Part shown: in pieces, positions 20,568 through 53,096 of the stretch
Numbering within the stretch: the stretch's first letter is position 1
How the letters are laid out: each line of letters opens with the position of its first letter
Source: an uncultured Bacilli bacterium
GTDB lineage: Bacteria > Bacillota_I > Bacilli_A > RF39 > UBA660
Length of the DNA stretch: 61,144 nucleotides
Direction: 5' to 3'
NCBI GenBank assembly: GCA_944358825.1
Contig: CALVSA010000003.1
Span: 1-61,144, forward strand
Notes under the pieces: generated by a model
What the model was told of the DNA's origin: nothing
The model's database searches: none
What the model saw: only the letters and a program-made list of their open reading frames with translations
Made by a program: the position numbers and the translations under genes

Positions 20568-21821
20568 ATGTTTTCTAAAGCAATACATAAGCGTATTAAA
20601 ATAGTTTTATTAGTTATAATTTTTTTGTTTGTTTTAATTGTTTGTAAAGTTTTTTATATCCAAGTGATTGATTATGATAAATTAAATGACTTGGCTAATT
20701 CTTTATGGAGTAGGAATTTACCAATTGAAGCAGATCGTGGACGTATTTATACTAGTGATAGTAAAGTAGTTGCAGATAATTTAACAACTGTTAGTTTAGT
20801 GTTGATTCCTAATCAAATAAAAGATAAAGAAAAAGTAGCACAAGATATAGCTAGTATATTAGAAGTTGATGTAGAAGCGATTAATGAGCATATTTATAAG
20901 AAGTCTTCTATAGAAAGAGTTCATCCAGAAGGAAGAAGATTATCTTATGAAGTAGCAGATAAGATTAATGCTCTAAATTATGATGGGGTATATTTAGTTA
21001 AGGAAGCTAAAAGGTATTATCCTAATGATTTTTTACTTTCTCATGTTTTAGGATATGTTGGAATTGATAATCAAGGACTTAGTGGTTTGGAGTTACAATA
21101 TGATACATATTTAACTGGGGCAGCAGGGGCAATTAAATATTATTCGGATGCAAAGGGGCAACGATTACGTCTTGCTGAATCTTATGTTGAACCACAAAAT
21201 GGAATGGATATTTATTTAACTGTCAATTATGATATTCAAACTTCTATAGAAAGAGAACTTAGTAATGTTATGGAGAAATATAATGCCGATGGGGCATGGG
21301 CAATTGCAATGGAACCTTCGACGGGAAAGATTTTGGGTATGGCTTCTTATCCGTCTTTTAATCCTAATAATTATCAAGATTATAGTATTGAAGAGATTAA
21401 TCGTAATTTAGCTATTTGGGCTACTTATGAGCCTGGTAGTACTTTTAAGATTGTAACTTTGGCAAGTGCTCTAGAAGAAGATGTAATTAGTTTAGATGAT
21501 ACTTTTTATGATGGTGGTTCAGTTAGGGTTGAAAATGCTCGTATTAAATGTTGGAAGCATGGAGGTCATGGACAACAAACTTTTTTAGAAGTGGTCCAAA
21601 ATAGTTGTAATCCTGGTTTTGTTGAAATAGGACAGAGACTAGGAAAAGAAAATTTGTTTAAATATATTGAAAATTTTGGTTTTGGTGATAAGACTGGTAT
21701 TGATTTAAATGGAGAGGGGAAGGGAATATTATTTTCTCTTGATAAAGTAGGTCCAGTTGAACTTGCTACTTCTAGTTTTGGTCAGGGTGTATCAGTTACT
21801 GCAATTCAACAAGTTGTCTAA
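20568..21821 (+). CDS. spoVD: N-terminal fragment (415 host-encoded codons) of a split class B penicillin-binding protein, SpoVD/PBP2B-like
   Basis: TM anchor, the PBP dimerisation region (RGRIYTSD..., LGYVGIDNQGLSGLE), SxxK as STFK and SxN as SCN. The ORF ends ...GQGVSVTAIQQ followed by VV* read from the inserted DNA. The KTG motif is absent. Confidence 0.9.
   Translation: MFSKAIHKRIKIVLLVIIFLFVLIVCKVFYIQVIDYDKLNDLANSLWSRNLPIEADRGRIYTSDSKVVADNLTTVSLVLIPNQIKDKEKVAQDIASILEVDVEAINEHIYKKSSIERVHPEGRRLSYEVADKINALNYDGVYLVKEAKRYYPNDFLLSHVLGYVGIDNQGLSGLELQYDTYLTGAAGAIKYYSDAKGQRLRLAESYVEPQNGMDIYLTVNYDIQTSIERELSNVMEKYNADGAWAIAMEPSTGKILGMASYPSFNPNNYQDYSIEEINRNLAIWATYEPGSTFKIVTLASALEEDVISLDDTFYDGGSVRVENARIKCWKHGGHGQQTFLEVVQNSCNPGFVEIGQRLGKENLFKYIENFGFGDKTGIDLNGEGKGILFSLDKVGPVELATSSFGQGVSVTAIQQVV
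21796..21820 (+). other. attL of element 1
   Basis: Host half-site TTACTGCA (21796-21803), shared core CAACAA (21807-21812) and element-end inverted repeat GTTGTCTA (21813-21820). Confidence 0.7.
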
Positions 21822-22001
21822 TAAATGATACCCTTACTATAACAAGAGGATTAAATAGTAAATATACCAAAAAATATGATGTTGAGTATGAGTATAGGTG
21901 CTTGATAAATATATAAGTCTAAAATTGCTAAATGATTATAATTTAGTAATTTTTTTGTGGATGTTTAATTTTAAACATTTTAAATGATATAATAAATATT
22001 A

Positions 22002-22922
22002 TTGGAGTTGATTATTATTAATACATTATTATTTGAAGAACACACAGATATGTTGTTAGAAATACTTGAAAAAAGTAACATAGATAATAAAGAAAAAGAA
22101 TATCGAAAAAATGAATTATTAAAAGTTTATAGTAAGATGGTAGAAACTAGAAAAATTGATAATAAATATTATAATATTTCACATGAAATAAGAACTTTGG
22201 ATTTTCTTTCTAATTTTAATAATTTATATATTACACAAGATCATCTTAGTAAACCAGGATGTGATTTTAAAATATCTGACAAGTATGAGATAGAATGCGT
22301 TTGCAGTTCATCTGGAAATGAAAAATTAAATGGTCTAAATAAATTTCATGGAAGTGGTATGTTTGATTATAATAAAAAGGAACAAATTATATTAACTAGA
22401 TTAACTCAATCGATAAAAGAAAAAAAACAATTTTATATTGAACATATTAATAATGGAACTATATCAGTTAATATGCCTTATATTATATTTTTAGGACTTG
22501 GTAATTTATCATATGAAACATTTGCTGGAACTTTTGGTTTTTTATTAAATAAAATATTGTTTGGCGTTGGTCAAGAAGTTTTACTTATAAATAAGAAAAC
22601 TAATAAAGTTGAAAAAGTCGAGTATTCACATAATTTAAACATTAAAAAGCATAATGGAGTCGAAATAGATTGTAATATATTTTGTAATAGCGATTATGAT
22701 TGTGTAAGTGGAATACTTTTTTCTACAGCTAGCTTAGGTGAAAAATATAATAAAAATAATACATTTTTATTTATTAATCCCCATGCAAAAAATAAAATCA
22801 AAGCATATGATTTTCCAAATATTATATATTGGAAAGCAAAAAAAGAAAATAACAATTACATTTACTTACCAAGATATAGAGGAAAAAATTTAAATAATTA
22901 TTTAAAAAAACATTATTGGTAA
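22002..22922 (+). CDS. Hypothetical protein (306 aa)
   Basis: TTG start preceded by the SD ttggag. No confident domain. The segment GCDFKISDKYEIECV is only vaguely nuclease-like. Confidence 0.4.
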   Translation: MELIIINTLLFEEHTDMLLEILEKSNIDNKEKEYRKNELLKVYSKMVETRKIDNKYYNISHEIRTLDFLSNFNNLYITQDHLSKPGCDFKISDKYEIECVCSSSGNEKLNGLNKFHGSGMFDYNKKEQIILTRLTQSIKEKKQFYIEHINNGTISVNMPYIIFLGLGNLSYETFAGTFGFLLNKILFGVGQEVLLINKKTNKVEKVEYSHNLNIKKHNGVEIDCNIFCNSDYDCVSGILFSTASLGEKYNKNNTFLFINPHAKNKIKAYDFPNIIYWKAKKENNNYIYLPRYRGKNLNNYLKKHYW

Positions 22923-23022
22923 AAGATATTTAATTTTACACTTAATTGATAATTAATCTTAATAATATATTTTCAAACACGATTAAATATGATATAATTT
23001 AATCGTGAAAGGAAACAATAAT

Positions 23023-23610: not shown

Positions 23611-23651
23611 ATAAGAATACAAAAAACATAATTTAATAAATGAGGTTATAT

Positions 23652-24440
23652 ATGAAAAATGGATTTGAAATTTTATTAACTTATTGGTATGGCATACCTT
23701 CAATGCCAGAAAAACGTATTACAAAAATAAAGAATGCAGGATTTAAATATTTATCACTACATTGGTGTGATGAGTATGAATCTTCAAATGGCAAAAAAGA
23801 AGAAATTTTTAATAAGTGCAAATTAAATGGCTTACAAATATTGGTATTTCATTTGCCTTTTGAAAAAGCAAATGATTTATGGAAAAATGATGCTTCTGGC
23901 AGACAATTGTTTAGCATTTATAAGCAAAGCATATTAGATGCACATAATAATGATGTTGAGTATGTGGTTATGCATTTAAACTCTGATTCTAAAAAACTCG
24001 AAAATATCGAAATTGGTTTAAAAAGAATAGCTGCATTATTAAAATATGCCGAAGAACTTAATGTAAATATTGCTTTTGAAAATTTACAAACAGAAGATCA
24101 ATTAGATAAAATTGAAGACATGTTAAATAATTATTCAAGTGCATGTTTATGCTTTGATGTAGGTCATAACAATATTAAATATAGTGATTTTATTAATTTA
24201 CATAAAGAAAAAATCAAAATAATGCATATTCATGATAATTTAGGAAAAACTGATACTCATCAAACACCTTTTACTGGTACCGTGAATTGGAAAAAAGTAT
24301 ATAATTTAATTAAAGAAATAAATAATCATTGCTTATTTGTGTTTGAAGTGCAGAAGCAAGCGAATGAAGAAGAAACCCCTTTTTTAAAAAATGTATATCT
24401 TGCTTATGAAAAAATGAAAAAAGATTTAGAAAAAAATTAA
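23652..24440 (+). CDS. Xylose isomerase-like TIM-barrel protein (sugar phosphate isomerase/epimerase, inosose dehydratase-type fold)
   Basis: Pattern of VMHL, IAFENL, CFDVGH and MHIHDN metal-ligand-like motifs. Confidence 0.65.
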   Translation: MKNGFEILLTYWYGIPSMPEKRITKIKNAGFKYLSLHWCDEYESSNGKKEEIFNKCKLNGLQILVFHLPFEKANDLWKNDASGRQLFSIYKQSILDAHNNDVEYVVMHLNSDSKKLENIEIGLKRIAALLKYAEELNVNIAFENLQTEDQLDKIEDMLNNYSSACLCFDVGHNNIKYSDFINLHKEKIKIMHIHDNLGKTDTHQTPFTGTVNWKKVYNLIKEINNHCLFVFEVQKQANEEETPFLKNVYLAYEKMKKDLEKN

Positions 24441-24455
24441 AGGAGAGATATTTAT

Positions 24456-25685
24456 ATGGGTAAAAATATTACATTAGTTTTAAAAGAAGATTTGGGACAT
24501 ACAAATTTTGAAATTGTCGAAAGAAAAGGCCAAGGTCATCCAGATACTTTGAGTGATACTTTAGCTGAAAAATTATCAAATGCTTATTCTAAATATACTT
24601 TGAAACATTTCGGAGCCGTTTTACATCACAATTTTGATAAAGTAGGAATGATGGGAGGTAAGTGTGAGGTTGAATTTGGCCATGGGAAAATGATAGAACC
24701 TATAAGAGTTTTATTAAATGGTCGTGCATCTAGTAAATTTGGTAATACTATAATAAATGTAAAAGAGCTTCTTATTAATGAGACCAAAAAGTTTTTTAAC
24801 GATAACTTTCCAATGCTTAATTTTGAAAAAGATGTTAGAATCATATATGAAGTTAGTGAAGGAAGTAGTCCTGGTGGTGTAAAAGGACATGAAAGTAAAA
24901 GACATAGATGGTTTGAGCCAGAAACTTTAGATGACCTTAATGAATTAAAACATCTTAATTGTAATGATACTTCAATGGGATGTGCGTTTTATGGATATAG
25001 TATATTAGAAAACATGGTGTATAAATTGGAAAGAAAATTAAATTCAAAAGAATTTAAGAAAAATCATATATGGCTAGGTTCTGATATAAAAATTATGGGT
25101 TTTAGAGAGGATAATAAAGTGAGTATTACAATGTGCATACCTCAATTATGTACTTATGTAAGGAATGTTACAGAATATTTAAATAATAAAGCTCAAATAG
25201 CGGAATATATTAAAACCTTTATTCATAGTTTATATCCAAATGTACAATTGGAATTGTATATTAATACAAGAGACAAAATTGATGAAAACAACACTGATTT
25301 ATATTTAACATTTACTGGTTCATCAATTGAAATGGGTGATGAAGGATTTGTTGGACGTGGTAATAGGATGGGAGGATTAATAACTCCAAGAAGATTTTAT
25401 ACAATGGAAGGCATTTGCGGGAAAAACCCTATTTATCATACTGGGAAAATGTATTGTGTTGCCTCATATATAATTGCAAAAAAAATATATGAGAAATGTG
25501 GAGTTAATTGTTCAGTAGAAATGATTGGTCAAAGTGGGCAGCCTTTATCTGACCCATTTAAAATTACTATTTATACCGATAAAAAAATTGATTATGATGT
25601 TTGTGATAAAATTGCAAGTAATGTATTAAATGACTTTGGTAAAATATCAATGGAGATTTTAGATGAAAAATATCCAATGTGTTAA
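24456..25685 (+). CDS. Archaeal-type S-adenosylmethionine synthetase (methionine adenosyltransferase, PF01941-like)
   Basis: EIVERKGQGHPDTLSD, LHHNFDKV, NDTSMG, SDIKIMG, LTFTGSSIEMGDEGFVGRGNRMGGLITP and GKNPIYHTGKMY align convincingly with the Methanocaldococcus MAT sequence as I recall it. Confidence 0.85.
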   Translation: MGKNITLVLKEDLGHTNFEIVERKGQGHPDTLSDTLAEKLSNAYSKYTLKHFGAVLHHNFDKVGMMGGKCEVEFGHGKMIEPIRVLLNGRASSKFGNTIINVKELLINETKKFFNDNFPMLNFEKDVRIIYEVSEGSSPGGVKGHESKRHRWFEPETLDDLNELKHLNCNDTSMGCAFYGYSILENMVYKLERKLNSKEFKKNHIWLGSDIKIMGFREDNKVSITMCIPQLCTYVRNVTEYLNNKAQIAEYIKTFIHSLYPNVQLELYINTRDKIDENNTDLYLTFTGSSIEMGDEGFVGRGNRMGGLITPRRFYTMEGICGKNPIYHTGKMYCVASYIIAKKIYEKCGVNCSVEMIGQSGQPLSDPFKITIYTDKKIDYDVCDKIASNVLNDFGKISMEILDEKYPMC

Positions 25686-26610
25686 TATTCCAGATAAATA
25701 TGCTCCATATAGTATTGAAATTGAATTAACAAACTATTGTAATGCTCACTGTGTTTTTTGTCCTAATAATTGTTCAAAAAGGGAAAGAGGATTTATTGAT
25801 AAACAAAAATTATATGATTTTTTAGAAAAACAAAAAGCAATTAAAGTTAATAATTGGTTTAATAAAAAATTTAACACTTTAGATTTTCCAAAGATAGTAT
25901 ATGCAGGGTTAGGTGAACCACTTTTGCACCCAGATTTTTTAGAAATAGTTAAATACACTAAAGAACTAGGGTTTCAAGTAGAAATAGTAACTAATGGTTT
26001 ATTACTAAATAAAAAAATTGTAGATAAATTGATAGAATTAAAAGTTGATTCTCTAGCAATTAGTCTACATAGCATGAATAAAGAAATTTATAATAAAATT
26101 ACAGGACTGTCTTTAAATAATGTTTTACCAAACGTTACTTATGCTTTAGAACAATATAAAAAAACCAATGCAAAAATTCAACTATGGCGAATAAAGCCCC
26201 TTTCAAACATGAAACAAGAAACAAAAAAAGATGAGGAAATATATAAAGAATATGTAAAATCATATCCTAATGTTATTGTATTAGGACCATCAGAGCCTTG
26301 GGAACGAGACATGAATAATCCTACTTCTTGTAATTTAGTAAATGATGATCCAAGTAATGGAATATGGTGTAGAAAATTGTATTATACCTTAAATATTGCA
26401 TATACTGGAGAAATTGTAATGTGTTGTAATGATTTTAATAGAATTTCTGTTAATATGGGAAACATCTTTGAATCTGAAAATCTTTCGGAAACTATAAGAG
26501 AAAAGATTCTAAATAAACAATTTATTCCAGAAATATGCAAAAAATGTCGAAGATGGAAAGATAATGAATTAGAAGAAATATTTGAAAAATATGGTGATAA
26601 AAATGAATAA
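25663..26610 (+). CDS. Radical SAM enzyme with a Cys-rich C-terminal (SPASM/twitch-like) extension
   Basis: CxxxCxxC as LTNYCNAHCVFC. A GLGEPLL glycine-rich motif. C-terminal cysteines (WCRK, MCCND, CKKC). Overlaps the SAM synthetase gene by 23 nt. Confidence 0.85.
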   Translation: MKNIQCVNIPDKYAPYSIEIELTNYCNAHCVFCPNNCSKRERGFIDKQKLYDFLEKQKAIKVNNWFNKKFNTLDFPKIVYAGLGEPLLHPDFLEIVKYTKELGFQVEIVTNGLLLNKKIVDKLIELKVDSLAISLHSMNKEIYNKITGLSLNNVLPNVTYALEQYKKTNAKIQLWRIKPLSNMKQETKKDEEIYKEYVKSYPNVIVLGPSEPWERDMNNPTSCNLVNDDPSNGIWCRKLYYTLNIAYTGEIVMCCNDFNRISVNMGNIFESENLSETIREKILNKQFIPEICKKCRRWKDNELEEIFEKYGDKNE

Positions 26611-27331
26611 AAAGAGAATATTATTATTTTGTGCCCATCCAGATGATGCTGAATTATGTGCTGGTGGAACAATAAAAAAATTTGTAAGCAAAGGTTATAA
26701 AGTTAAAGTTGTAATTATGACTAATGGTGGTGTAGGAAATAACGATATGAACGTTTCTAAAACAGTAGATATTAGAAACGTAGAGATGCAAAATGCGGCA
26801 AGTTTTTTAAATTATGAAGTTAAAAATTTAAATATAAACGATGGTGAAGTGTTACCTACATTAGAATATAGAAAACTTGTTATTGATGAAATAAGAAAGT
26901 TTAAACCAGATATTATTATGACTCATAGAAGCAATGATTATCACCCAGATCATCGATACACAAGTATATTAGTTCAAGATTCATTAGTACTAATTTGTAC
27001 TGGAAATTATTGTCCAACATATAGTCCTTTAAATTATACCCCAATAACTTTATTTTTCTGGGATAGGTTTACGAAGCCAAATTCATTTAATGCTGATATT
27101 GTATATGATATAACAAATGAATTTGAAGATAAAGTAGAAGCTTTATCAAAACACAAATCACAATATAAAAGTATAGATGAATGTAGAAATGTTTTAATTG
27201 ATATTAATAATGAGTTGAAACAAAATATTGAATCAAGCTACAAATATATTGAAGCATTTGAAATTTGTGAGTATGCAAAAAAAGATGAATTAATAGCATT
27301 TTTAGAGTCAAAAAGCAAAATTTTTGGTTAG
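26603..27331 (+). CDS. PIG-L/LmbE-family N-deacetylase
   Basis: ILLFCAHPDDAELCAGG and DYHPDHRYTS motifs. Confidence 0.85.
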   Translation: MNKKRILLFCAHPDDAELCAGGTIKKFVSKGYKVKVVIMTNGGVGNNDMNVSKTVDIRNVEMQNAASFLNYEVKNLNINDGEVLPTLEYRKLVIDEIRKFKPDIIMTHRSNDYHPDHRYTSILVQDSLVLICTGNYCPTYSPLNYTPITLFFWDRFTKPNSFNADIVYDITNEFEDKVEALSKHKSQYKSIDECRNVLIDINNELKQNIESSYKYIEAFEICEYAKKDELIAFLESKSKIFG

Positions 27332-27342
27332 GAGTAGATAAA

Positions 27343-28551
27343 ATGAAAGTTTTGTTAATATCAAATTATAATATTGTCGAAGGTAGAGGCCCAATGTTTA
27401 GATTAATGAATATGATTCCATATTTAAATACAAAATGCAATATAGAATTGTGTTCATTAGGCAAGATTGATGACGTAGTAATAAAAATGGCATTAGAAAA
27501 CAAGATTAAATATTATGAAATCAGTTATAAAACAAAAGGGTGGTTTGTTAAAAATACTAAAGAAATAGCTAATAATATAATTGATATAGCAAACCAAGAT
27601 AATATAGATTTAATTGTTTTGACTTGGGAAATTTGGGATGTCGCAGTAGCTTTACAGAATAATATAAGTAAATGTAATGCAAAATTAGTAATAACTATGC
27701 ATTCTATCCCTTTTGTTGCTGCATCAATTAAGACAGGTAATTATGTAATAGATTATATAAAGAAAATTTTATTTGAACCACGATTTATGATTAAAAAATA
27801 TTTAGTTTGTCGCATTCCACAAGTAAATCATTATATGCATAAATTTAATATATTAACAATGACTAAAACGGTAGAATATAAATTAAATAAATACTTTAAA
27901 AATATTAATTTGTATTTAGCATATCCAGGGTATGCTACTAGTCTACCATTAATACCACAAAACATAAATTATCAATATGATTTTGTTTATATGGCGAAAT
28001 TTGAATATGGTAAAGGTATATATGAAATCATTAAAATAATGAAAGAAATAAAAAAAGTAAAACCCAATTTCAAATTAGCTTTAGTTGGTGATTTTACATT
28101 TAAAGATGAAGAAATCAAATTTTTTAATCGAATAAAAAAATTTGATTTAGAAAATAATATAAATTATTTAGGTTGGCTGGATGGTACAAAAAAATATGAA
28201 ACCATTATAAATAGCAAAATATTTTTATATCCTTCATTTGCAGGAGATACGTTTTCAATTTGTTTGTTAGAAGCACTTTCGTGTGGTAAACAAATTGTTT
28301 GTTACAATGTTCCTTTTGTAAGAGATAATTTTAATATTAAAACTGTACATAAAATTCCAGTATTTAAAAATAAGTTATTTGCCCAAAAAGCAATTGAACT
28401 TTTAAAAGAAAAAAATTACAATGTTAATGAATCAATTAATTTTGTAAAAAATAACTTTTCTTCATGGAATAAAGTGGCTAATGCAGAATATAATGCATAT
28501 AAAAATATTATGGATAATAAAAATGGACAAACAAATATTAAAAGATTATAA
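27343..28551 (+). CDS. GT-B fold glycosyltransferase (GT4/GT1-like)
   Basis: C-terminal FLYPSFAGDTFSICLLEALSCGKQIVCYNVPF (EX7E-type region). Confidence 0.75.
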   Translation: MKVLLISNYNIVEGRGPMFRLMNMIPYLNTKCNIELCSLGKIDDVVIKMALENKIKYYEISYKTKGWFVKNTKEIANNIIDIANQDNIDLIVLTWEIWDVAVALQNNISKCNAKLVITMHSIPFVAASIKTGNYVIDYIKKILFEPRFMIKKYLVCRIPQVNHYMHKFNILTMTKTVEYKLNKYFKNINLYLAYPGYATSLPLIPQNINYQYDFVYMAKFEYGKGIYEIIKIMKEIKKVKPNFKLALVGDFTFKDEEIKFFNRIKKFDLENNINYLGWLDGTKKYETIINSKIFLYPSFAGDTFSICLLEALSCGKQIVCYNVPFVRDNFNIKTVHKIPVFKNKLFAQKAIELLKEKNYNVNESINFVKNNFSSWNKVANAEYNAYKNIMDNKNGQTNIKRL

Positions 28552-29350
28552 TTTGAAAAACATTACATTAAAGTGTAAATCCAACTATGGCATTATATAT
28601 GAAGCTATTTCTGAAGATTATAATAAACTTATAGTAAAAATAAATTTTGACAAAAAAAATTATCATGATTCGTGCAAGTATTATACTTATTTTAAAAATA
28701 TGAAATTATGTAAAATGTATGAAAATGATGACAAAAATAATATTCAATTATTAGAATATATTAATGGCGATAATCTTTTTTGTATTTCTGATTTTAATAA
28801 AAGAATTAAAATAGGATATGATTACTTTTATAATTGGTCAACAAAAATAATAACCATAAATAATGATAATGACATATCTTTTGAAAACCAGGTTAATGTA
28901 ATGATTGATAACTTAAAAAATATGTCGCTATCTAGTAAAGTTATTAAATTAGTAACAGAATTTGAGAAAAAAGCAAAACACTTTTTTCAAACATATAATA
29001 ATTCATACTTGCTACATGGTGATTTACATCATTATAATATGCTATATGATGGCAAAACAGTTACAGCAATTGATTTATCACCACGGCAAGCTAGTTTTGC
29101 AATCGAAATAGCAAAGTTTATTGAAAATGAATTATTTAATAATATAGGTAATATATTTCAAATTTTAAATGCATTTTTATTAATATATAAATTTGAAATC
29201 ATAAGCTGTGATGAATTATTAGAGGGATTATTTATTGATTCATGTTACAGAACATTTGATACTTTCATTGAAAATAAAGATGTCAGTGAACTTGAAAAAG
29301 GAATATATATGAATTATGAAATCTTAAAATTTATGGAAAGTAGGGCATAA
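28523..29350 (+). CDS. APH/choline-kinase-family phosphotransferase
   Basis: Brenner-type motif LLHGDLHHYNMLYDG...AIDLSP. The start is uncertain (28481 or 28523). Confidence 0.65.
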   Translation: MDKQILKDYNLKNITLKCKSNYGIIYEAISEDYNKLIVKINFDKKNYHDSCKYYTYFKNMKLCKMYENDDKNNIQLLEYINGDNLFCISDFNKRIKIGYDYFYNWSTKIITINNDNDISFENQVNVMIDNLKNMSLSSKVIKLVTEFEKKAKHFFQTYNNSYLLHGDLHHYNMLYDGKTVTAIDLSPRQASFAIEIAKFIENELFNNIGNIFQILNAFLLIYKFEIISCDELLEGLFIDSCYRTFDTFIENKDVSELEKGIYMNYEILKFMESRA

Positions 29351-45077: not shown

Positions 45078-46055
45078 ATGGTTTATGAGTTGAATAATTT
45101 TTTTGTTAGTTTTTCCTTATTGTGGGATCAAGAAATAAACTTAACTCTTTTAAAAGAATATTTAGGAGAGTATGCAATAGTTGAAAGAGTTACTAATTTA
45201 TCAGGACAATATGACTTGGCTATTTGTTTCATAGATGAAAATAATAGTTTATTTGATACAAATATATACATGATTGATAAGCACAAAGCGAGATTTGTAA
45301 ATAATCAATTATTCATTGGAAGGAAAGAGGTAAATAGTGAAGAAATACTATTTACTAAACGATTATTGATAGATTTAATTAATAGATTTTTTGAACGTAA
45401 AGGAGGTGTTTTTTTACATTCTTCCTCGGTTGTCTCTGAAGGAAATACAGTTCTTTTTATAGGCGATAAGGGAACTGGAAAAACAACAAACATGTTATAT
45501 TTATTAAATAATTATAATTTAGCATATTCCTCTAATGAGAGAACAGGGTTAATATTGAGTAGTGATAAAATTGTCTCATATGGAAATCCTGCAAGGATAA
45601 ACGTTCGTGCGAACACATTAAAATTGAATAAATTGTTGAAAGATAAGTTATGGGATTGTATTGATAAAAGTAAATATCAACAGTTCATAACTACTAATTT
45701 ATCCAGGGATTGCAGCGAAAGATTAGTAATTAGTTTTAATGATTTAGCTAATAAATTAGGGGTTCAGATTGTTCCTAGTTCAAAGCTGAAAATAATATTT
45801 AATTTAATATATGAGCCCAATATTGTGTTTGATTTTGAAGAAGTTGAATACAAGGAAATGAAACATTTTATAGAAAGTTCTGTAATTGATGGCGTTTTTC
45901 CGCAAAGAGAAGTTTTAAACAAAATTTTTCCGATTCATGCGACAGATGTAAAAGATATTTTAGATAGTGATGAAATATGTTATTATAATATATATCAAGA
46001 TGGGACAAGAGATAATAGTTCAGAAGTCTATAAAATATTAAAAAGGAAAATGTAA
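45078..46055 (+). CDS. HPr-kinase-like P-loop protein (HprK-related kinase family)
   Basis: FLHSSSVVSEGNTVLFIGDKGTGKTT resembles the HprK catalytic-domain P-loop context. Confidence 0.5.
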   Translation: MVYELNNFFVSFSLLWDQEINLTLLKEYLGEYAIVERVTNLSGQYDLAICFIDENNSLFDTNIYMIDKHKARFVNNQLFIGRKEVNSEEILFTKRLLIDLINRFFERKGGVFLHSSSVVSEGNTVLFIGDKGTGKTTNMLYLLNNYNLAYSSNERTGLILSSDKIVSYGNPARINVRANTLKLNKLLKDKLWDCIDKSKYQQFITTNLSRDCSERLVISFNDLANKLGVQIVPSSKLKIIFNLIYEPNIVFDFEEVEYKEMKHFIESSVIDGVFPQREVLNKIFPIHATDVKDILDSDEICYYNIYQDGTRDNSSEVYKILKRKM

Positions 46056-46056
46056 T

Positions 46057-46989
46057 ATGGAACAAATTGATAATATAATGAAATCTTACAGTATAGATCT
46101 TACAAGTTATAAATCATTATCAAAGGGATATGCATCTAGGAAATGGATTATTGTTGATAAAAATAAGAATAGATACCTTCTTAAGGAAATAAAGAATCAA
46201 TCTATAAATAGATTGTGTAAAATATTGCAGGTTCAGTCTAAACTATATGATTTTTCTCCCAAAATAATTAAAACTAAAAATAATGAATTATATGTTAATT
46301 ATGAGTATAATAGTTACTATTTAAGTGAATTTATTGAAAGTGAAAGGTTGGATGTGATTTCTCATGTGCGGGATATTGGACTTTTTCTTGCTATGTTGCA
46401 TAAAAAAATGTTCGAGGTAAAAAATATTCATACTACTTTCTTAAAAGTGGAAAATAATTTAATTATATTAAATGAATATTTAAAATATCACAAATTACAT
46501 AATCATACTGAATATGTTGAAATAATTAAGTATAAGTTATCTATTTTGGGAAAATTAAAAATTACTGATATTAATTTTAATAATTTAACAAAACAGATTA
46601 TTCATGGTGATTTTTATGGTGATAATATTCTTTATACTAATTCCTCGTATAAAATTGTAGATTTTGATCAGTGTTGTGAGTTTTATAAAGAATATGAAGT
46701 ATTAAGGGGTATGTTTATGTTATTTAGTGATTCTTTATTGAGCAAAGAAGAATTATATCGAATGAAGGAATTTATTGATGGATATTATACTTTAGAAAAG
46801 ATAAAATCGCCAAAAGATGCATACAATTTGTATTTATATATTCAAGCAAATAGTTTATCTAGTATTAAACCTGATGATTATGGCAAGTATGAAAAAATGA
46901 GTTTTGCAAAAAAGAGATTTAGGATATTAAAATGTTTAGTAGAAAATAAAGAGAATGTAATGAAAATTTTAGAAGGAGATTATAGATGA
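46057..46989 (+). CDS. APH/homoserine-kinase-type-II-family phosphotransferase
   Basis: IIHGDFYGDNILY...KIVDFDQ motif. Confidence 0.7.
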   Translation: MEQIDNIMKSYSIDLTSYKSLSKGYASRKWIIVDKNKNRYLLKEIKNQSINRLCKILQVQSKLYDFSPKIIKTKNNELYVNYEYNSYYLSEFIESERLDVISHVRDIGLFLAMLHKKMFEVKNIHTTFLKVENNLIILNEYLKYHKLHNHTEYVEIIKYKLSILGKLKITDINFNNLTKQIIHGDFYGDNILYTNSSYKIVDFDQCCEFYKEYEVLRGMFMLFSDSLLSKEELYRMKEFIDGYYTLEKIKSPKDAYNLYLYIQANSLSSIKPDDYGKYEKMSFAKKRFRILKCLVENKENVMKILEGDYR

Positions 46990-47429
46990 GAAAGCCAATT
47001 CAAGTTTTAGTCTTGCCATATAGACATTACAAAAATGAGATTCAATTTGCTCTATTTAAAAGAGCTGATTTAAATGTGTGGCAAGGAATAGCTGGAGGAG
47101 TAGAAGAAGGAGAGAATATTTTTGAAGCATGCAAAAGGGAGGCAAATGAAGAAGCAGGCATTCCTTTTGATGCAAGCTTTATAAAATTGGATTCAAAATC
47201 AACTATACCAGTAAATTTTATTAATGGAGATTTTCTATGGGGAGAAAGAACGTTTAATGTTATTGAATATTGCTTTGGTGTTTGTGTTGATGATATTGAT
47301 ATAGTTTTGTCTGAAGAGCATAAAGAAGTATTTTGGACGGATTATGAGAAAGCATTTACTATGTTTAAATGGGACAGTAATAGAAATGCTTTATGGGAAT
47401 TAAACGAAAGAATCAAGCGCATGAAATAA
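46986..47429 (+). CDS. Nudix hydrolase, NudB-like (copy B)
   Basis: Nudix box GGVEEGENIFEACKREANEEAG and KWDSNRNALWEL. Overlaps the preceding kinase gene by 4 nt. Confidence 0.8.
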   Translation: MRKPIQVLVLPYRHYKNEIQFALFKRADLNVWQGIAGGVEEGENIFEACKREANEEAGIPFDASFIKLDSKSTIPVNFINGDFLWGERTFNVIEYCFGVCVDDIDIVLSEEHKEVFWTDYEKAFTMFKWDSNRNALWELNERIKRMK

Positions 47430-47557
47430 TTAGAAATGGCTAAAAGAGAAGTTTACTGAAAATTATTTTTTTAATACATTAGTGTACTAAGTTATATTAA
47501 TATTGAATAAAAAGTAAAAATATGGTAATATAATATCTGTTTTAAGGAGGCAGTAAT

Positions 47558-49756
47558 ATGAGTCAAGATATTTATAAAGAGGAAACTGAATATTTAGAAT
47601 ATGTAGAAAAATGTATTGCTAAAGAATTAGAAACAGCAATTGAGATGTTAGATAAACTTCGCAAGCAAAAAATAACATACGATGATGCAAAACGTGGTGA
47701 ACATTTCACAAAAGAAGCATTAATGGATTTATATGCATCCAGAATTAGAAGATTAAAACAAATAATAAATTCACCTTATTTTGGAAGAATGGATTTTACA
47801 CCAAAAGATACAAGAATATCTCAAAAATTATATGTGGGAAAAACAACTGTATCTAACCCGGATAATCAATTAGCGGTTATTGACTGGAGAAGTCCAATAT
47901 CTAGTATGTATTATGATAGTTTAGTTGGAAATGCTAAATACATTGCTCCAGAAGGTATAATTGAAGGATTTATTTCATTAAAACGGCAAATTATTATTGA
48001 AGATGCTATTATTAAATCTGTATTAGATACTGATTTAATAACGGATGATGAAATATTACAAAATTATTTAGATGTTCATGCAGATAATAAGATGAAAGAT
48101 ATTGTTGCATCAATTCAAAAAGAGCAGAATGACATTATCAGAAGACCTATAAACGAAAACGTAATAGTTCAGGGAGTTGCCGGTTCTGGAAAAACAAGTG
48201 TAGCTTTGCATAGGATTGCTTTTTTAATATATTTATTAAATAATAGTGGTAACAAAAAAATGGTTAATTCAGATCAATTTTTGATAATTGGACCCAATAA
48301 TTATTTTTTAGACTATATTTCAGGCGTTTTGCCTGATTTAGATGTTGAAATGGTAAATCAGACAACAATTCCAGCTTTACTTGCAGATTTAGTTAATGAA
48401 AAATTTACTGTGCAAGAATCTACCGAAGAACTCAAAGAATTTTATTCCAATGGTAGAATTAGTTATGAAAGTGCAATAAAAAATTCACCGCAATTTAAGG
48501 AAGCATTGGATAGATATATGCAAGATATTATTGAGTACTATAAAAATACTAATATTGTTTATTATGGTAAAGTGTTGTTTTCAAAGGAAGAAATCGCTGA
48601 GTTACTTAAAAACCTAACAGGTAGTTATAGAGCAAAAATCAATTTTATCCAAAAACGTTTAGTTAAAAAAATAAAAGATGATTATGACAAATATTATGAC
48701 TTGCTAACTGAAGACTTATATCGAGAAGCGCGTTCTTTGCCAAAGAATAGTGAAAGAAGAAGATTATTGTATGATGAAACCACATTACTTGGAAAAGAAG
48801 TGAAAACGGGGCTAACAAAAGTTATAAAAAAACATTTTGAACTCATAAACAAGAAATTATTATTATTGTATGCAGGTTTTATAAATAGTATTGATAGATA
48901 TATGAATATAGAGAATGTTGAAGAATTTAAAAAATTCACAACAAAAAGATTATCTAAGAAAATACTATCAAGGGATGATATCGCTCCAATTTTATATTTA
49001 AAATCACAGTTGGATGATGTAAAGGATTATAACGGTATTATTCATGTGATCGTGGATGAAGCTCAAGATTTGGGATTATTAGAATTTAAGATTTTAAAAA
49101 AATTAATACCAAATGCAACTTTTTCTATTTTTGGCGATTTAAATCAAGCTATCTTTTCTTATCGTTCGGTAAAAGATTGGAAATCTGTCAAAGACGTGGT
49201 TTTTGAAGGTAATGCTAATATTGTTATGATGGATCAATCATATAGAACAACTGATGAAATAATGAGTGAAGCAAATAAGATTTCAGAAATTTTAACTGGG
49301 ACTTATTCAAAGGATATAATTAGGCATGGAAAACCAGTTCAATATATTTCTTGCGATGGTGATTCAGAAGTGTTGTTTATTGCTGAAAAAGTAAAAGAAT
49401 ATCGAAAAAGCGGATACAAGTCAATTGCAATAATATGTAAAGCAGAAGAAGAAGCTATGAGTATAAATAAAAAACTATTGTATTATGGTATTGATGCGAG
49501 AAATATCACACCAAATGATAGAGAGTATCACGGTGGATTATGTACTATTACTTGCAGTTTAGCGAAAGGCTTAGAATTTGACGCTTCTATTTTAGCTAAT
49601 GTTGATTCTAATATGTACAATCCATCGCGTGATATTGATATGAAGTTATTGTACGTAGGTATGACAAGAGCATTACATGAAACCACCATTATTTCAACTG
49701 GAGAATTACCTTCAGTTTTAAAAAAAAGAGGGGAGTCTTTAGTTAGAAAAAAATGA
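47558..49756 (+). CDS. helD: HelD-like UvrD-family (helicase IV-type) ATPase
   Basis: N-terminal coiled-coil region, LAVIDWRSPISSMYYD, Walker A GVAGSGKTSVALHR, VDEAQD, SYRTT and YVGMTRALH. Confidence 0.8.
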   Translation: MSQDIYKEETEYLEYVEKCIAKELETAIEMLDKLRKQKITYDDAKRGEHFTKEALMDLYASRIRRLKQIINSPYFGRMDFTPKDTRISQKLYVGKTTVSNPDNQLAVIDWRSPISSMYYDSLVGNAKYIAPEGIIEGFISLKRQIIIEDAIIKSVLDTDLITDDEILQNYLDVHADNKMKDIVASIQKEQNDIIRRPINENVIVQGVAGSGKTSVALHRIAFLIYLLNNSGNKKMVNSDQFLIIGPNNYFLDYISGVLPDLDVEMVNQTTIPALLADLVNEKFTVQESTEELKEFYSNGRISYESAIKNSPQFKEALDRYMQDIIEYYKNTNIVYYGKVLFSKEEIAELLKNLTGSYRAKINFIQKRLVKKIKDDYDKYYDLLTEDLYREARSLPKNSERRRLLYDETTLLGKEVKTGLTKVIKKHFELINKKLLLLYAGFINSIDRYMNIENVEEFKKFTTKRLSKKILSRDDIAPILYLKSQLDDVKDYNGIIHVIVDEAQDLGLLEFKILKKLIPNATFSIFGDLNQAIFSYRSVKDWKSVKDVVFEGNANIVMMDQSYRTTDEIMSEANKISEILTGTYSKDIIRHGKPVQYISCDGDSEVLFIAEKVKEYRKSGYKSIAIICKAEEEAMSINKKLLYYGIDARNITPNDREYHGGLCTITCSLAKGLEFDASILANVDSNMYNPSRDIDMKLLYVGMTRALHETTIISTGELPSVLKKRGESLVRKK

Positions 49757-51003
49757 AACTTTTAGAAAAAATTAATTGTGAATTGCCTACAATAGCAATT
49801 TTGGGAACAGGTTATGTAGGCTTGCCACTTATAAATCTTTTGTCGCAGAAGGTTCCCGTAATCGCTTATGACATAGATGAGGAGAGAATTACAGAATTAT
49901 TAAAAAATAATAAAAATAACAATATTACATTTACGTATGATGAATCCTTGCTTAGGAAGGCAGATGTAATAATAGTTTGTGTTTCTACACCAATTGATGA
50001 GAATAATCAGCCAAACTTAAATTATATAAAGAATGCTTGTATTTCTATTGCTAAAAATATTAAAGATGGAGTGCTAATTATTTTTGAGACATCATACATG
50101 CCGACATGTACGGAAAATATATGTATACCCTTGATTGAAAAAAAATCTGGATTAAAAAATGATATTAATTTTTACGTTGGCTATTCTCCTGAGAGAATAA
50201 ATCCTGGTGATATTCAAAACACATTGTCTAACATTACCAAGTTAATCGCTTCTCCATCAAAAAAGGTTTTAAATGCTATGAAGTATATTTACTCAGATAT
50301 AGCCGGTATAAACGTTTACGAAGTGAATGATATTAAAATTGCAGAACTATCTAAATTGGTAGAGAATTGTCAAAGAGACTTAAATATTGCCTTTGTAAAT
50401 GAGTTATCTATACTTTGTCATAGATTAAACATTGATGTTCAAGAAGTTATTAATTCAGCAGGGACAAAATGGAATTTTACAAAATATTATCCAGGTCTAG
50501 TCGGTGGTGGATGTGTCGGGGTAAATTCATATTATTTGATGAATCTTGCAGAACAATATGGAGTCAGATTGAATAGTTTAGAGATTGCGAGAAAAATTAA
50601 TTTATCAATGACAACGTTTATCGTTGCAGAAATTAGTAGATTAATTGGAAATGCGAATAGAAATAAAATCAAAGTAGTAATTTATGGTTATTCTTATAAA
50701 GAAAATATTCCTGATACACGAAATACAAGGGTAGAAGATTTATATAGAAATTTAATCAATGAAGAATATAGTGTTTGTATTTGTGATTATAATGTTTCAT
50801 CTTGTCAGTATGTGAGTAAAGAAGATATAAGTGATGCTGATATTATTATTTTAGCTGTTGCTCATAGAAATTACATTAATTGGAATAATGAAGAGATTAG
50901 TAAAAAATTTAATCAGAAATCAAAGTATAAAATTTTTATGGATGTAAAGTCTGTTTATAAAGATAAGGTTATGCCTAAAACAATTACATATTGGCATTTG
51001 TAA
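49753..51003 (+). CDS. Nucleotide-sugar dehydrogenase (UDP-glucose/UDP-ManNAc/TviB family)
   Basis: IAILGTGYVGLP Rossmann motif, YSPERINPGD, and the catalytic-Cys region PGLVGGGCVGV. The ATG overlaps the helD stop by 4 nt. Confidence 0.8.
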   Translation: MKLLEKINCELPTIAILGTGYVGLPLINLLSQKVPVIAYDIDEERITELLKNNKNNNITFTYDESLLRKADVIIVCVSTPIDENNQPNLNYIKNACISIAKNIKDGVLIIFETSYMPTCTENICIPLIEKKSGLKNDINFYVGYSPERINPGDIQNTLSNITKLIASPSKKVLNAMKYIYSDIAGINVYEVNDIKIAELSKLVENCQRDLNIAFVNELSILCHRLNIDVQEVINSAGTKWNFTKYYPGLVGGGCVGVNSYYLMNLAEQYGVRLNSLEIARKINLSMTTFIVAEISRLIGNANRNKIKVVIYGYSYKENIPDTRNTRVEDLYRNLINEEYSVCICDYNVSSCQYVSKEDISDADIIILAVAHRNYINWNNEEISKKFNQKSKYKIFMDVKSVYKDKVMPKTITYWHL

Positions 51004-51009: not shown

Positions 51010-51032
51010 AAAGATGAGAAATACTCATCTTT
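51010..51032 (+). terminator. Intrinsic terminator ending the helD-dehydrogenase operon
   Basis: AAAGATGAG-aaata-CTCATCTTT stem, followed by TT(a)T. Confidence 0.6.
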
Positions 51033-51116: not shown

Positions 51117-51251
51117 ATGAAAAGAATTGATAAAAACGGTAAAAGAAGGAAACTAAATATGGAATTTATTTATAAAAAAGATGGTACAAAATTAGAAGAA
51201 ATTATGAAGGAGGGATATTTGTGTTATTTAAGAAATTTAAAAGCCAAATGA
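51117..51251 (+). CDS. Small basic hypothetical protein (44 aa) upstream of recombinase 2
   Basis: SD agaggtgg 7 nt upstream. Sequence MKRIDKNGKRRKLNMEFIYKKDGTKLEEIMKEGYLCYLRNLKAK*. Not in the ORF track. Confidence 0.3.
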   Translation: MKRIDKNGKRRKLNMEFIYKKDGTKLEEIMKEGYLCYLRNLKAK

Positions 51252-51333
51252 TTTGCTTTTTTGAAGTTTTGATGGTAACATGGCATTGTGAGGTCTTGGT
51301 ATTGCAAAATAATAGATTGGAGGGAATAAATTA

Positions 51334-52908
51334 ATGCAATACCTATGTGCTGGTTATAATAGATTATCAGATGCTGATAATAAAAACGATGAAAGTTCTT
51401 CTATTCAAAGTCAAAAAATGATAATTGATTCTTTTGCTAAATTTAATAATTTTCAAATTGTTAAACATTATGTAGATGATGGATATTCTGGAGGTAATTT
51501 TGATAGACCTGGGTTTAAAGAAATGATCGAGGATATTGAAAAAGGAAAAATTAATTGTGTCATTACAAAGGACTTATCTAGACTTGGTCGTGAAATGTAT
51601 AAAACTGGTAACTATATTGAAGAATACTTTAGAGAACACGGTGTTAGGTATATTGCTATTAATGATTCCTATGATTCTACTGTTGGTGATTCAATGTTAG
51701 GAATTAGATTAAGTGTTAATGATTTATATTTAAGAGATGTATCTAAAAAAGTTAAAACGTCTCTTAAAGCAAAACAAACTAAAGGCGATTATATTGGCTC
51801 TTTTCCTAGATATGGATATAAAAAAGATCCAAATGATAAACATAAATTAATTGTTGATGAAGAAGTCAGATATGTTGTTGAACTCATTTATGATTTAGCA
51901 CTTGAGGGAAAAAGCCCTAGAAAAATAGCAGAAATATTAACCTTAAAAAAGATTCCTATTCCAATAGTTTATAAGGGTGAGCCTAGAGGTAAAAATATTA
52001 CAGAAAATGATGGCTTTGGAATTTGGAAAAGGCAAACTGTTAAAGATATACTAACAAGTGAAATGTATATTGGAAATATGGTACAAAATACCTTTAATAA
52101 AGTCAGTTATAATTCTAAAAAATTAAGAAAGACTGATACTAGTGAATACATTGTCGTACCAAATACTCATGAGGCAATTATATCGAAAGAAACATTTGAT
52201 AAAGTTCAAGATTTACTAAATTCTAGGACAAAAGACAAAAAAACTGATAGTCAATTAGAATATTTACTTGGAGGACTTCTTTATTGTAAAGAGTGTGGAA
52301 GAAGTATTAGAATTAGTAAAGATGTTTTAAAAACTACTGTAAGACACTATACACAATGTAATCTATATACGAGAAAAGGCAAATTTGGTGTTTGTTCATC
52401 TCATAGGATTAATTATGATTGGTTAGAAGAAGATATTATAGAATATTTACAAAATATATGCGAAGAATTTTGCAAGTATTATGACTTTAACGAACTAGAA
52501 GATAATTCAGAAGAAATAGTGATTAAAAATTTAAGGGAAATTAATAAGAAAATTGAAAAGATTGATAATGAAATAAATTCTCATAAGAATATGCTCGATA
52601 GTTTATATATGGATAAAGTTAGTGGACTTGTTGATGAAGATATGTATAAAAGAATTTATGATAAAACTAAAACAGAAATAAAGAAATTAGAAATTGAATT
52701 AGAGGAATTAATGAGAAAAAAAGATAATAATAAGAGTGTTCAAAATACTTCTTCATTTAATCGGTGCAAAAAATCTGTTTTAGATTATATGTCGCTTAAA
52801 AATCCTACTAAAAATCAAATTATGAGACTTATTGATCGAATAGAAATTGATAAAGATAAGAAAATTTATGTTCATTTGAAATTTCCAGAATTAATTATTA
52901 ATGATTAA
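51334..52908 (+). CDS. Large serine recombinase
   Basis: YNRLSDAD...SSSIQSQ catalytic region, ITKDLSRLGRE, zinc ribbon CKECGR...C...C, and a C-terminal coiled coil (EIELEELMRKK). SD ttggaggg. Confidence 0.9.
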   Translation: MQYLCAGYNRLSDADNKNDESSSIQSQKMIIDSFAKFNNFQIVKHYVDDGYSGGNFDRPGFKEMIEDIEKGKINCVITKDLSRLGREMYKTGNYIEEYFREHGVRYIAINDSYDSTVGDSMLGIRLSVNDLYLRDVSKKVKTSLKAKQTKGDYIGSFPRYGYKKDPNDKHKLIVDEEVRYVVELIYDLALEGKSPRKIAEILTLKKIPIPIVYKGEPRGKNITENDGFGIWKRQTVKDILTSEMYIGNMVQNTFNKVSYNSKKLRKTDTSEYIVVPNTHEAIISKETFDKVQDLLNSRTKDKKTDSQLEYLLGGLLYCKECGRSIRISKDVLKTTVRHYTQCNLYTRKGKFGVCSSHRINYDWLEEDIIEYLQNICEEFCKYYDFNELEDNSEEIVIKNLREINKKIEKIDNEINSHKNMLDSLYMDKVSGLVDEDMYKRIYDKTKTEIKKLEIELEELMRKKDNNKSVQNTSSFNRCKKSVLDYMSLKNPTKNQIMRLIDRIEIDKDKKIYVHLKFPELIIND

Positions 52909-53000
52909 AAAACAGTTATAAAGCAATGTTATATTTATTTTTCAGTAATATAGATAGTGTAACCTATACAAAATAAGTTGCACAAGAAAGATTTAGGGGG

Positions 53001-53096
53001 GTAACTTTGCCTTTCTTAAGTTATGGAGGTAGTAGTTTAATTATTACTATGATTGGTATAGGTATTTTACTAAATATTTCAAGGTCAGAAAAATAA
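53001..53096 (+). CDS. spoVE: C-terminal 31 codons of the split SEDS protein (FtsW/SpoVE)
   Basis: Reads [31 protein letters not shown], the conserved SEDS C-terminal motif. It has no start codon of its own. Not in the ORF track. Confidence 0.85.

Follow-up and report, generated by a model that had tools for sequence, protein, structure and literature searches.

SpoVD, a penicillin-binding protein of class B (bPBP), and SpoVE, a SEDS protein, together make up the mother-cell peptidoglycan synthase of the spore cortex in Bacillus. In the heterocysts of cyanobacteria, several independent elements lie in functionally linked genes (nifD, fdxN and hupL) and all of them are removed in the terminally differentiated cell, the recombinases being XisA, XisF and XisC. 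Sporulation genes known from the literature as targets of intervening elements are sigK, spsM, spoVFB, spoVR, gerE and yabG, and excision during sporulation has been reported for skin, SP-beta, gin and yin (PMC4191935, PMC5595907, PMC10747680, PMC5025042). The present report deals with a stretch of 61,144 nucleotides (the window) from an uncultured Bacilli bacterium of the RF39/UBA660 lineage (assembly GCA_944358825.1, contig CALVSA010000003.1, forward strand), in which spoVD and spoVE are both interrupted. The interruptions are two unrelated, horizontally mobile, non-phage islands (element 1 and element 2), each of which was inserted by its large serine recombinase (LSR) into a conserved, motif-coding stretch of a sporulation gene. 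Literature searches found no published spoVD- or spoVE-intervening element, in agreement with a preliminary description of this DNA, which had been aware of none.

Skin interrupts sigK and carries the recombinase SpoIVCA in B. subtilis, and CD1231 together with the recombination directionality factor (RDF) CD1234 in C. difficile; as here, it is an LSR-bearing element inside a mother-cell sporulation gene. In C. difficile skin, the LSR lies at the element's edge, just upstream of the gene's 3' part (PMC5025042), which is also the arrangement found here, and its small acidic partner has 72 amino acids, compared with 68 and 44 amino acids in the present elements. The cargo varies in both cases and the recombinase alone is shared. 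The differences are that spoVD and spoVE encode enzymes, not a sigma factor; that the window elements contain no phage genes and their cargo is defence-like or biosynthetic; that no sigma-E or SpoIIID signals were found before the partner gene; and that the elements have recently been mobile between genera. Their excision, moreover, is a proposal.

The gin element in gerE of B. cereus ATCC 10987 (GirC/GirX; PMC5595907) is, like the elements described here, a non-prophage gene-intervening element. Relatives of the latter in contigs L028 and L016 are similarly minimal, with only an LSR, a small open reading frame (ORF) and a Fic gene in 2.6-2.7 kb, whereas the window elements themselves measure 14 kb, have a large cargo and occupy other target genes. 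SP-beta in spsM, vfbin in spoVFB, vrin in spoVR and yin in yabG also lie in late mother-cell genes, which are restored precisely by a serine recombinase; however, these elements are prophages or remnants of prophages, and in no case are the two partners of a single enzyme complex both split. Skin and SP-beta are present together in the genome of B. subtilis 168 (PMC4191935, PMC10747680), which thus already needs two excisions. Among the heterocyst recombinases, XisF is also an LSR, but the phylum and the developmental programme differ, and the window recombinases are not XisF equivalogs (NF041201 matches both weakly, with 91 and 97 bits; cut-off 375). Non-phage islands with variable cargo are also represented by SCCmec with its Ccr recombinases and by LSR transposons of the Tn4451/Tn5397 type, and a relative of element 2 has a TraG-like gene; these islands, in contrast, have other targets (orfX and others) and no link to sporulation genes, and the best NCBIfam matches of the window LSRs, CcrB and CcrC, score far under the cut-off (110-127 bits; cut-off 900).

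The interrupted genes and their empty sites

The G+C content of the window is about 25%, and its gene order is ftsA-ftsZ, class B PBP gene, mraY and SEDS gene. The features that concern the two interrupted genes are as follows.

20568..21812, plus strand: 5' fragment of spoVD, codons 1-414, with the STFK (SxxK) and SCN (SxN) motifs inside
21807..21812, plus strand: core CAACAA of the attachment site attL1, identical to 35626-35631; a single copy is found at the joint in contigs L087 and L083
21813..35631, plus strand: element 1, a non-phage integrative island of 13,819 bp; boundaries from the empty sites in L087 and L083
35626..35631, plus strand: core CAACAA of attR1
35632..36291, plus strand: 3' fragment of spoVD, codons 415-634, with the KTG motif and one PASTA domain
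36376..37368, plus strand: intact mraY (TIGR00445, 312.7 bits; cut-off 192)
37381..38369, plus strand: 5' fragment of spoVE, codons 1-330, ending in ...GLIPVTG
38368..38370, plus strand: crossover region of attL2, GG within ACTGGGTAA, by comparison with the empty sites in L087 and L086
38370..52999, plus strand: element 2, a non-phage integrative island of 14,630 bp
52996..53001, plus strand: attR2, the run of G that holds the crossover GG
53000..53096, plus strand: 3' fragment of spoVE, codons 331-361

The joined PBP consists of 634 amino acids, with the STFK, SCN and KTG motifs and one PASTA domain, and scores 726.5 bits against the SpoVD model TIGR02214 (cut-off 688), covering profile positions 3-636 of 636. 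The joined SEDS protein consists of 361 amino acids, with PEPQTDF and SYGGSS, and reaches 457.6 bits against the SpoVE model TIGR02615 (cut-off 448.8). On comparison with the dcw locus of B. subtilis (L061), the PBP was found to be 51.7% identical to the protein at the spoVD position and 33.9% identical to PbpB, and the SEDS protein 52.7% identical to that at the spoVE position. Judged by these scores and by synteny, the split genes are true orthologues of B. subtilis spoVD and spoVE, as had been proposed, and by analogy with B. subtilis they would be expressed in the mother cell. In the integrated state, no active protein is possible from either gene.

An alternative would be that these are the only FtsI/FtsW division genes of the organism, or that the locus is an assembly chimera. 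The position beside mraY and downstream of ftsA-ftsZ would suit division genes, and the joined SEDS protein is also above the cut-off of the FtsW model TIGR02614; nevertheless, the SpoVD and SpoVE models outscore the FtsI and FtsW models for the joined proteins, and the orthology with the B. subtilis genes points the same way. A second bPBP, about 31% identical, is encoded a few kb upstream in six related metagenome-assembled genomes (MAGs), and that of L028 has the division protein PBP2X as its best family and lies below the SpoVD cut-off; a PBP2X-like paralogue adjoining spoVD is thus known from relatives. Besides, the prevalence of split alleles in natural populations is incompatible with a role as essential division genes. 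With respect to a chimera, an exact-protein look-up of MraY returned the same arrangement in several unrelated assemblies, and the junctions are identical whether many samples were assembled with SPAdes or MEGAHIT, by Logan or from long reads. As many assemblies show the split independently of one another, it is not an assembly artefact, and this alternative as a whole is exceedingly improbable.

The 5' frame of spoVD ends in ...GQGVSVTAIQQ and is closed by a stop codon at 21819-21821, inside element 1 and two codons past the junction; the same 417-amino-acid product occurs on 14 contigs. The frame is picked up again in frame at 35632 (ITAVSAAINGGTLYKPY...) and runs to position 36291. Element 1 is thus inserted at codon 414, between the SxN and KTG motifs (GQGVSVTAIQQ|ITAV). 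In spoVE, element 2 lies at codon 330, at the PVTG motif, and its junction creates the TAA stop codon at 38371-38373 that closes the 5' frame; the resulting 330-amino-acid product is found on 33 plus 11 contigs. On reconstruction, attP1 forms an imperfect palindrome around CA, with 16/21 positions matching: GTTTCATTTA-N13-CA-N13-TAAATGATAC.

Natural empty sites were found for both insertions. Contig L087 (ENA ERZ17292905), which is 99.0-99.3% identical to the window, carries orf147, an intact spoVD of 634 amino acids, mraY and an intact spoVE of 361 amino acids. Its joints are exactly as predicted, namely ...GCAATTCAACAAATAACTGCAG... in spoVD and ...CCTGTTACTGGGGTAACTTTGCC... in spoVE, the latter being common to L087 and L086; together with the coordinates given above, this confirmed the claim of the preliminary description that two genes are split around an intact mraY. 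An intact spoVD next to a split spoVE was observed in L083 (99.97% identical to the window), L119 and L121. In these five contigs the natural empty sites correspond base for base to the predicted joints, which bears on the exactness of the joint only and not on excision in this strain, and the intact spoVE alleles P0004 and P0007, of 361 amino acids, agree with the predicted joint as well. The genotypes found for element 1/element 2 are -/-, -/+ and +/+. Since intact and split contigs agree at the joints, the elements are polymorphic insertions with base-precise empty sites.

In protein clusters at 90% identity, split 3' fragments of spoVD were counted on about 54 contigs and the intact form of 634 amino acids on about 10, while split 5' fragments of spoVE were counted on about 50 contigs and the intact form on 3; split alleles hence make up about 85-95% of assembled copies. 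Frames are open in all split copies, and conservation of the two halves of each gene extends over roughly 100 contigs. Between the split spoVD of the window and the intact one of L087 there are 13 synonymous and 4 non-synonymous changes, with a dN/dS of about 0.08, which is below that of mraY. Both genes are interrupted in most wild strains and are therefore not essential for growth, yet they are kept; because most wild strains carry the cuts, excision in the sporulating mother cell probably puts the two parts of each gene together again.

These data also bear on the possibility that the lineage is losing sporulation and that the split spoVD and spoVE have become dead pseudogenes, with no restoration at any stage. 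Many sporulation genes have been lost in Erysipelotrichia-like gut bacteria (bioRxiv 10.1101/2022.02.25.481979), and in one relative, the rec1-carrying host L091 (4990-5950), spoVE appears as two overlapping ORFs of 115 and 223 amino acids, owing to a frameshift or an assembly error. Such decay is highly improbable for the window, given the open and conserved halves, the low dN/dS and the joined proteins, which are full-length equivalogs by score. In addition, the fragments are all intact in divergent species with insertions at other sites, and gerE, gerM and a BclA-like gene of the window keep promoters of the sigma-K/E type (see below).

Recombination modules and cargo

Each element encodes one LSR, at its right end, preceded by a small ORF. 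The contents of the two elements are given here from left to right.

22002-22922, plus strand: defence-type cargo gene, PD-T7-5-like (PADLOC, E=1.6e-11)
23005-23610, plus strand: defence-type cargo gene, orphan AbiEi (PADLOC, E=1.7e-63)
23640..32107, plus strand: cargo cluster of element 1 (Pfam), with a xylose-isomerase-like TIM barrel, an archaeal-type SAM synthetase, a radical SAM/SPASM protein, a PIG-L deacetylase, a GT1 protein, two kinase-like genes, a gene of 378 amino acids without known family and a peptidase S51 gene
32493..33613, plus strand: HTH_36 protein, similar to the N-terminal part of replication initiators, and orf144 (PF13730, phrog_4707)
33779..33985, plus strand: orf68, small gene directly upstream of rec1, candidate RDF
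33996..35675, plus strand: rec1, LSR of 559 amino acids (Resolvase, Recombinase, Zn_ribbon_recom; phrog_95 integrase, E=1.2e-111)
38662..51003: cargo of element 2 (Pfam, PADLOC), with a radical SAM/SPASM protein, a GFO/IDH/MocA oxidoreductase, two NUDIX proteins, two PHP proteins, an adenosine deaminase, two APH-like kinases, a P-loop protein, a UvrD-like helicase and a UDP-glucose-dehydrogenase-like gene
51010..51032, plus strand: terminator-like hairpin between the cargo and the recombination module of element 2
51117..51251, plus strand: orf44, small ORF upstream of rec2, candidate directionality factor, present in every rec2 locus
51334..52908, plus strand: rec2, LSR of 524 amino acids (Resolvase, Recombinase, Zn_ribbon_recom; phrog_95, E=5.5e-104)

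The two recombinases are only 24-26% identical to each other and the att cores are unlike, CAACAA in element 1 and GG in a run of G in element 2, which bears out the earlier statement that two different elements are involved. The 90% cluster of rec1 has 377 members. Exact-protein look-up gave six further rec1 contexts, each with a spoVD 3' fragment that starts at residue 411 directly downstream of the LSR, and in a metagenome survey all 14 LSRs that are at least 69% identical to rec1 and have a judgeable downstream region abut a spoVD fragment, starting at residues 397-418; a fifteenth LSR of this group (L138) has no spoVD fragment. The conserved module of the element 1 family consists of the HTH_36 protein, orf141/144, orf68 and the LSR, and the HTH_36 gene and orf144 are also found beside the LSR in L088, L089, L097 and L127-L142. 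The 90% cluster of orf68 has 62 members, and small ORFs homologous to it are found before the LSR in relatives that target spoVD, spoIVA, sigK and dac. The cargo varies within the family, with AbiEi/AbiEii and a type I restriction-modification system in L088 and a GTPase in L089. The stop codon of rec1 is located 44 nt into the host spoVD 3' DNA (35632-35675); the host thus encodes the 15 C-terminal residues of the protein, in place of which 35 residues from the left end of the element would be read once excision had taken place. The C-terminal tails of rec1 relatives vary by host (P0015, P0016, P0022).

The rec2 cluster has 27 members and the orf44 cluster 38 members on hundreds of contigs, and in every rec2 context fetched the spoVE 3' fragment adjoins the LSR. 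Deletion and insertion-sequence variants of element 2 (L105, L110, L113) have lost most of the cargo and retain the ends and the recombination module; all variants retain the sequence from 51038 on, with orf44 and rec2. Left ends of elements at the PVTG site have a common CCCTTA....TAAGGG hairpin (window 38410-38428). Two paralogous NUDIX genes in element 2 (40984-41442 and 46986-47429) show 86.6% DNA identity over 97 nt. Both cargos (23640-31100 and 38662-51003) are rich in nucleotide- or sugar-modifying enzymes, including two radical SAM/SPASM genes in total, and on these cargos PADLOC returned as further matches only weak viperin-like and CARF-ADA-like ones. The cargos may encode a small-molecule, glycan or anti-phage pathway.

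With regard to the class of element, Pfam, PHROGs and PADLOC scans of the cargo detected no phage structural, packaging or lysis genes in either element, and returned only an integrase, a helicase, a fragment that looks like the N-terminal part of a replication initiator, and genes of metabolic or defence type. No relaxase, coupling protein, type IV secretion system genes or oriT were found in the two window elements by the cargo scans. When the LSRs were compared with phage and plasmid records by tblastn, nothing exceeded 49% identity; relatives of rec2 in the IMG/VR scan were LSRs of at most 43% identity, without sporulation-gene flanks. Rfam and tRNA scans of the region gave nothing relevant.

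Targets of the recombinase clade and sporulation signals

Insertion into spoVD is not confined to the species of the window. Among related uncultured gut bacteria, spoVD is interrupted in about 7 of the 17 species that have it near mraY. Distant LSRs of the rec1 family, 38-45% identical, cut spoVD at the SxxK motif in L028, L026 and L018, and at the SxN motif in L015, L032, L020, L027 and L171; in L028 (5257-9921) the cut is inside STFK itself. Together with codon 414, upstream of KTG, three sites of spoVD are hit, each in or next to a catalytic motif of the transpeptidase. Two insertion sites are known in spoVE. Both are occupied in L016 (11013-14927), where a 2.6-kb element near residue 238 and another insertion at the PVTG site used in the window divide the gene into three pieces; besides a Fic gene and orf39, the 2.6-kb element contains an LSR that shares 36% identity with rec2, and orf39, at the same position as orf44, was judged to resemble it by eye only. 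The codons of catalytic motifs are conserved and would therefore give an element a broad host range.

For a survey centred on the LSRs, metagenome contigs were scanned with an alignment of the rec1 family, which gave 80 loci, 70 of them with usable flanks. The identities of the fragments were confirmed with NCBIfam, and the neighbours of the LSR were as follows.

sigK fragment: 24 loci
spoIVA fragment, split near residue 400: 16 loci
spoVD fragment: 15 loci
spoVB fragment: 1 locus
Dac-type carboxypeptidase fragment: 1 locus
intact spoVS: 2 loci
unknown: 11 loci

In 58 of the 70 loci, therefore, the LSR lies beside a sigK, spoIVA, spoVD or spoVB fragment or beside intact spoVS. Setting aside the dac gene, the interrupted targets identified in this survey are mother-cell genes, spoVS being uninterrupted, and none of them is clearly a gene of the forespore or of early sporulation. 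Hence, rec1 belongs to a largely "skin-like" clade. The preliminary description had called the elements skin-like, and this is supported by the LSR clade of element 1, which is mostly in mother-cell genes including sigK; the elements themselves are not prophage-like and are small islands with defence-type or biosynthetic cargo.

Relatives of rec1 in sigK itself are 41-43% identical to it. The spoIVA-type LSRs are 44-52% identical to rec1, their hosts range from 26 to 52% G+C, and spoIVA is split near residue 400 of TIGR02836; we know of no described spoIVA-intervening element. The spoVB and dac loci are further cortex-related targets. For spoIVA, spoVB and dac alike, the clade suggests intervening elements that have apparently not been described. 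Throughout the clade, the LSR has a conserved small ORF directly upstream, with the core ...E-I-x-L-x-I-N-x-x-L-Y/F-x-K-x-x-I-T/D-x-x-x-Y/F... The loci concerned are these.

L145-L166, L191, L193 and L201: LSRs adjoining spoIVA (for example, L162 5629-5913, and L155 5598-6875, minus strand)
L158 1758-2960, minus strand: N-terminal fragment of spoVB beside a rec1-family LSR (TIGR02900, positions 2-385 of 488)
L184 4189-5013: C-terminal fragment of a DacA/DacB-type D,D-carboxypeptidase gene beside a rec1-family LSR

Sporulation signals were searched for by regex scans. The CATA box is the hallmark of sigma-E/K -10 elements. Of 11 independent spoVD orthologues, 10 have such a box 25-35 nt ahead of the start codon, compared with 11% of 289 background ORFs. 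The preliminary description had listed further sporulation genes in the window, and SpoIIIAH, a GerE-type protein, GerM and a BclA-like protein with its GT2-TPR protein were all recovered.

20521..20551, plus strand: sigma-E-like promoter candidate for spoVD, TATATT-N17-CATAAAAT
53110-54189, minus strand: GT2-TPR gene
54198-55343, minus strand: BclA-like collagen-repeat gene, promoter AC-N17-CATAAATTA at 55329-55302
55432-55962: spoIIIAH (PF12685, 63 bits)
56047-56253: gerE (GerE-type gene), promoter AC-N16-CATACAATA at 55978-56004
56316-57284: gerM, Germane domain in two copies, ATA..CATATATT at 56275-56300

The promoters of gerE, gerM and the BclA-like gene, which serve as positive controls for use of the mother-cell regulon, are of the sigma-K/E type, and the regulon therefore looks alive. 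In the sigK- and spoIVA-type members of the rec1 clade, CATA boxes are found before the small ORF. At orf68, the sequence GGACAG next to the ribosome-binding site was considered as a SpoIIID box and rejected, as it is not conserved in L136. A sigma-70 scan gave fewer matches than shuffled sequence and was uninformative.

The BclA-like gene varies in length among strains (325, 357, 358, 360 and 390 amino acids in other contigs), and its G+C content of 52% in a genome of 25% is due to the codons of its GPT repeats. Upstream in the window, at 687-5134, there is a set of genes of the Tad/Flp pilus type (TadZ-like and CpaF-like ATPases, TadB/C-like proteins and two TadE-like proteins), named from their translations only.

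Proposed excision in the mother cell

It is somewhat probable that the islands are excised in the mother cell by their LSRs, restoring spoVD and spoVE, and that the forespore keeps them. The integrated state would then be the germ-line state, harmless in growth because spoVD and spoVE are needed only for cortex synthesis in the mother cell. On sporulation, in the mother cell as the terminally differentiated cell, each LSR would act on its attL and attR and recombine them, probably with the help of the orf68 or orf44 protein as a directionality factor; this would release a circle and restore spoVD and spoVE in frame, while the forespore chromosome would retain both islands with their cargo. Excision by an LSR and a small partner in this manner would parallel CD1231 and CD1234 of C. 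difficile skin. Cortex synthesis would then need both excisions, as a consequence of two independent insertions and not of a co-evolved circuit. The preliminary description spoke of an AND gate; two excisions are indeed logically required when both elements are integrated, but a designed circuit is an overstatement, since the elements occur independently (-/-, -/+ and +/+) and the gate is incidental.

Several observations weigh against developmental excision. Exact-protein look-ups with rec2, with one variant of it and with the radical SAM gene, the first cargo gene at the left end of element 2, returned no attP contig, which would represent an excised circle; they gave integrated contexts only, plus two unexplained junctions (L122 and L125). 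The attP form predicted for rec1, of 579 amino acids, was also not in the protein collection. L087 differs from the window by about 1% and is therefore another strain and not an excision product. The preliminary description had suggested looking for sigma-E/K-type promoters or SpoIIID boxes upstream of 33779/33996 and 51334; regex scans found none before orf68/rec1 or orf44/rec2, and a hairpin with a T-run precedes the small ORF in the window elements. Finally, SpoVD of C. difficile also builds the polar septum (PMC12713402), a role that restoration in the mother cell only could not serve; the window organism is closer to the class Bacilli.

The mobility of the elements belongs to the same side of the argument. 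The LSR of element 1 is 90-93% identical across hosts whose MraY proteins are only 56-58% identical, and its contexts are alike; element 1 therefore moves horizontally, which is the behaviour of an ordinary mobile island. The LSR of element 2 is 99.4% identical where the host MraY is 77% identical, so that it too is mobile between distant hosts. This copy of rec2, in a second species (L097, 560-2590), lies beside a gene for a TraG/VirD4-type coupling protein, and some relatives may accordingly qualify as integrative conjugative or mobilisable elements. In that species rec1 also adjoins a spoVD 3' fragment, and spoVE is convergent with mraY and not downstream of it.

These features suit the main rival explanation, namely that the elements are ordinary mobilisable islands which use spoVD and spoVE as conserved "safe-harbour" sites, that their excision is stochastic or linked to transfer or stress, and that carriers sporulate poorly or after chance excision. 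The same LSRs in very divergent hosts, the TraG/VirD4 gene, cargo of defence-like or biosynthetic type that differs between copies, polymorphism within the species and the lack of a detected sporulation promoter before the recombination modules would all be expected. The left end of element 2 (99.96-100% identical) is, moreover, joined in L122 (1-28) and L125 (1-70) to DNA that is neither spoVE nor the right end in the window; these junctions may be another attachment site or the attP of a variant. However, a share of about 85-95% split alleles is hard to square with their being costly to a gut anaerobe in which sporulation genes and their promoters are retained, and minimal elements of 2.6-2.7 kb persist without transfer genes. 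Among the identified targets, the clade interrupts only mother-cell genes (sigK, spoIVA, spoVD and spoVB) or a dac gene, and skin, SP-beta, gin and yin, which have been studied experimentally, excise during sporulation. On balance, this explanation is considered unlikely, and excision in the mother cell is preferred.

Two side observations concern the junctions. The sequence joined to element 2 in L125 holds the direct repeat GTTTACCAAAAAACTTG twice. The ends of contigs L083, L085 and L082 coincide precisely with the first k-mer that is specific to the junction (31, 31 and 77 nt), so that the assembly graph branches at the att sites and mixed states are indicated in those samples. These contig ends were rejected as proof of excision; co-occurring strains or related hosts sharing the element end explain them equally well.

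A wider proposal, which is doubtful at best and rather improbable as a whole, is that one LSR clade with its small partner systematically colonised mother-cell morphogenesis genes of gut spore-formers (spoVD, spoVE, spoVB, dac, spoIVA and sigK), that the islands are not mere passengers but defence or biosynthetic islands inherited through the germ line, that they are released and maybe replicate in the mother cell, where the cargo acts or the islands spread at lysis, and that cortex synthesis became a multi-key checkpoint, passed only when all islands are gone. Replication there is conceivable because the module encodes an HTH_36 protein that resembles the N-terminus of a replication initiator. 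Under such a checkpoint, spoVE of L016 alone would need two excisions.

The kind of element described here is known; what is new lies in the target genes, in the fact that the two members of a single enzyme pair are both split, in the insertion into codons of catalytic motifs and in the non-phage island cargo. For practical purposes, the elements offer new LSR/att pairs with 6-bp and 2-bp cores, together with candidate small directionality factors. Interruption is common in uncultured gut Bacilli, and most strains of this species carry both insertions. As spoVD and spoVE are commonly split, annotation and the "sporulation signature" scoring of MAGs will misread such hosts as being without spoVD and spoVE. 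If excision proves to be developmental, codons of enzyme catalytic motifs would be shown to be preferred landing sites, and the SpoVD-SpoVE cortex synthase would join the short list of sporulation functions that are assembled by DNA rearrangement.

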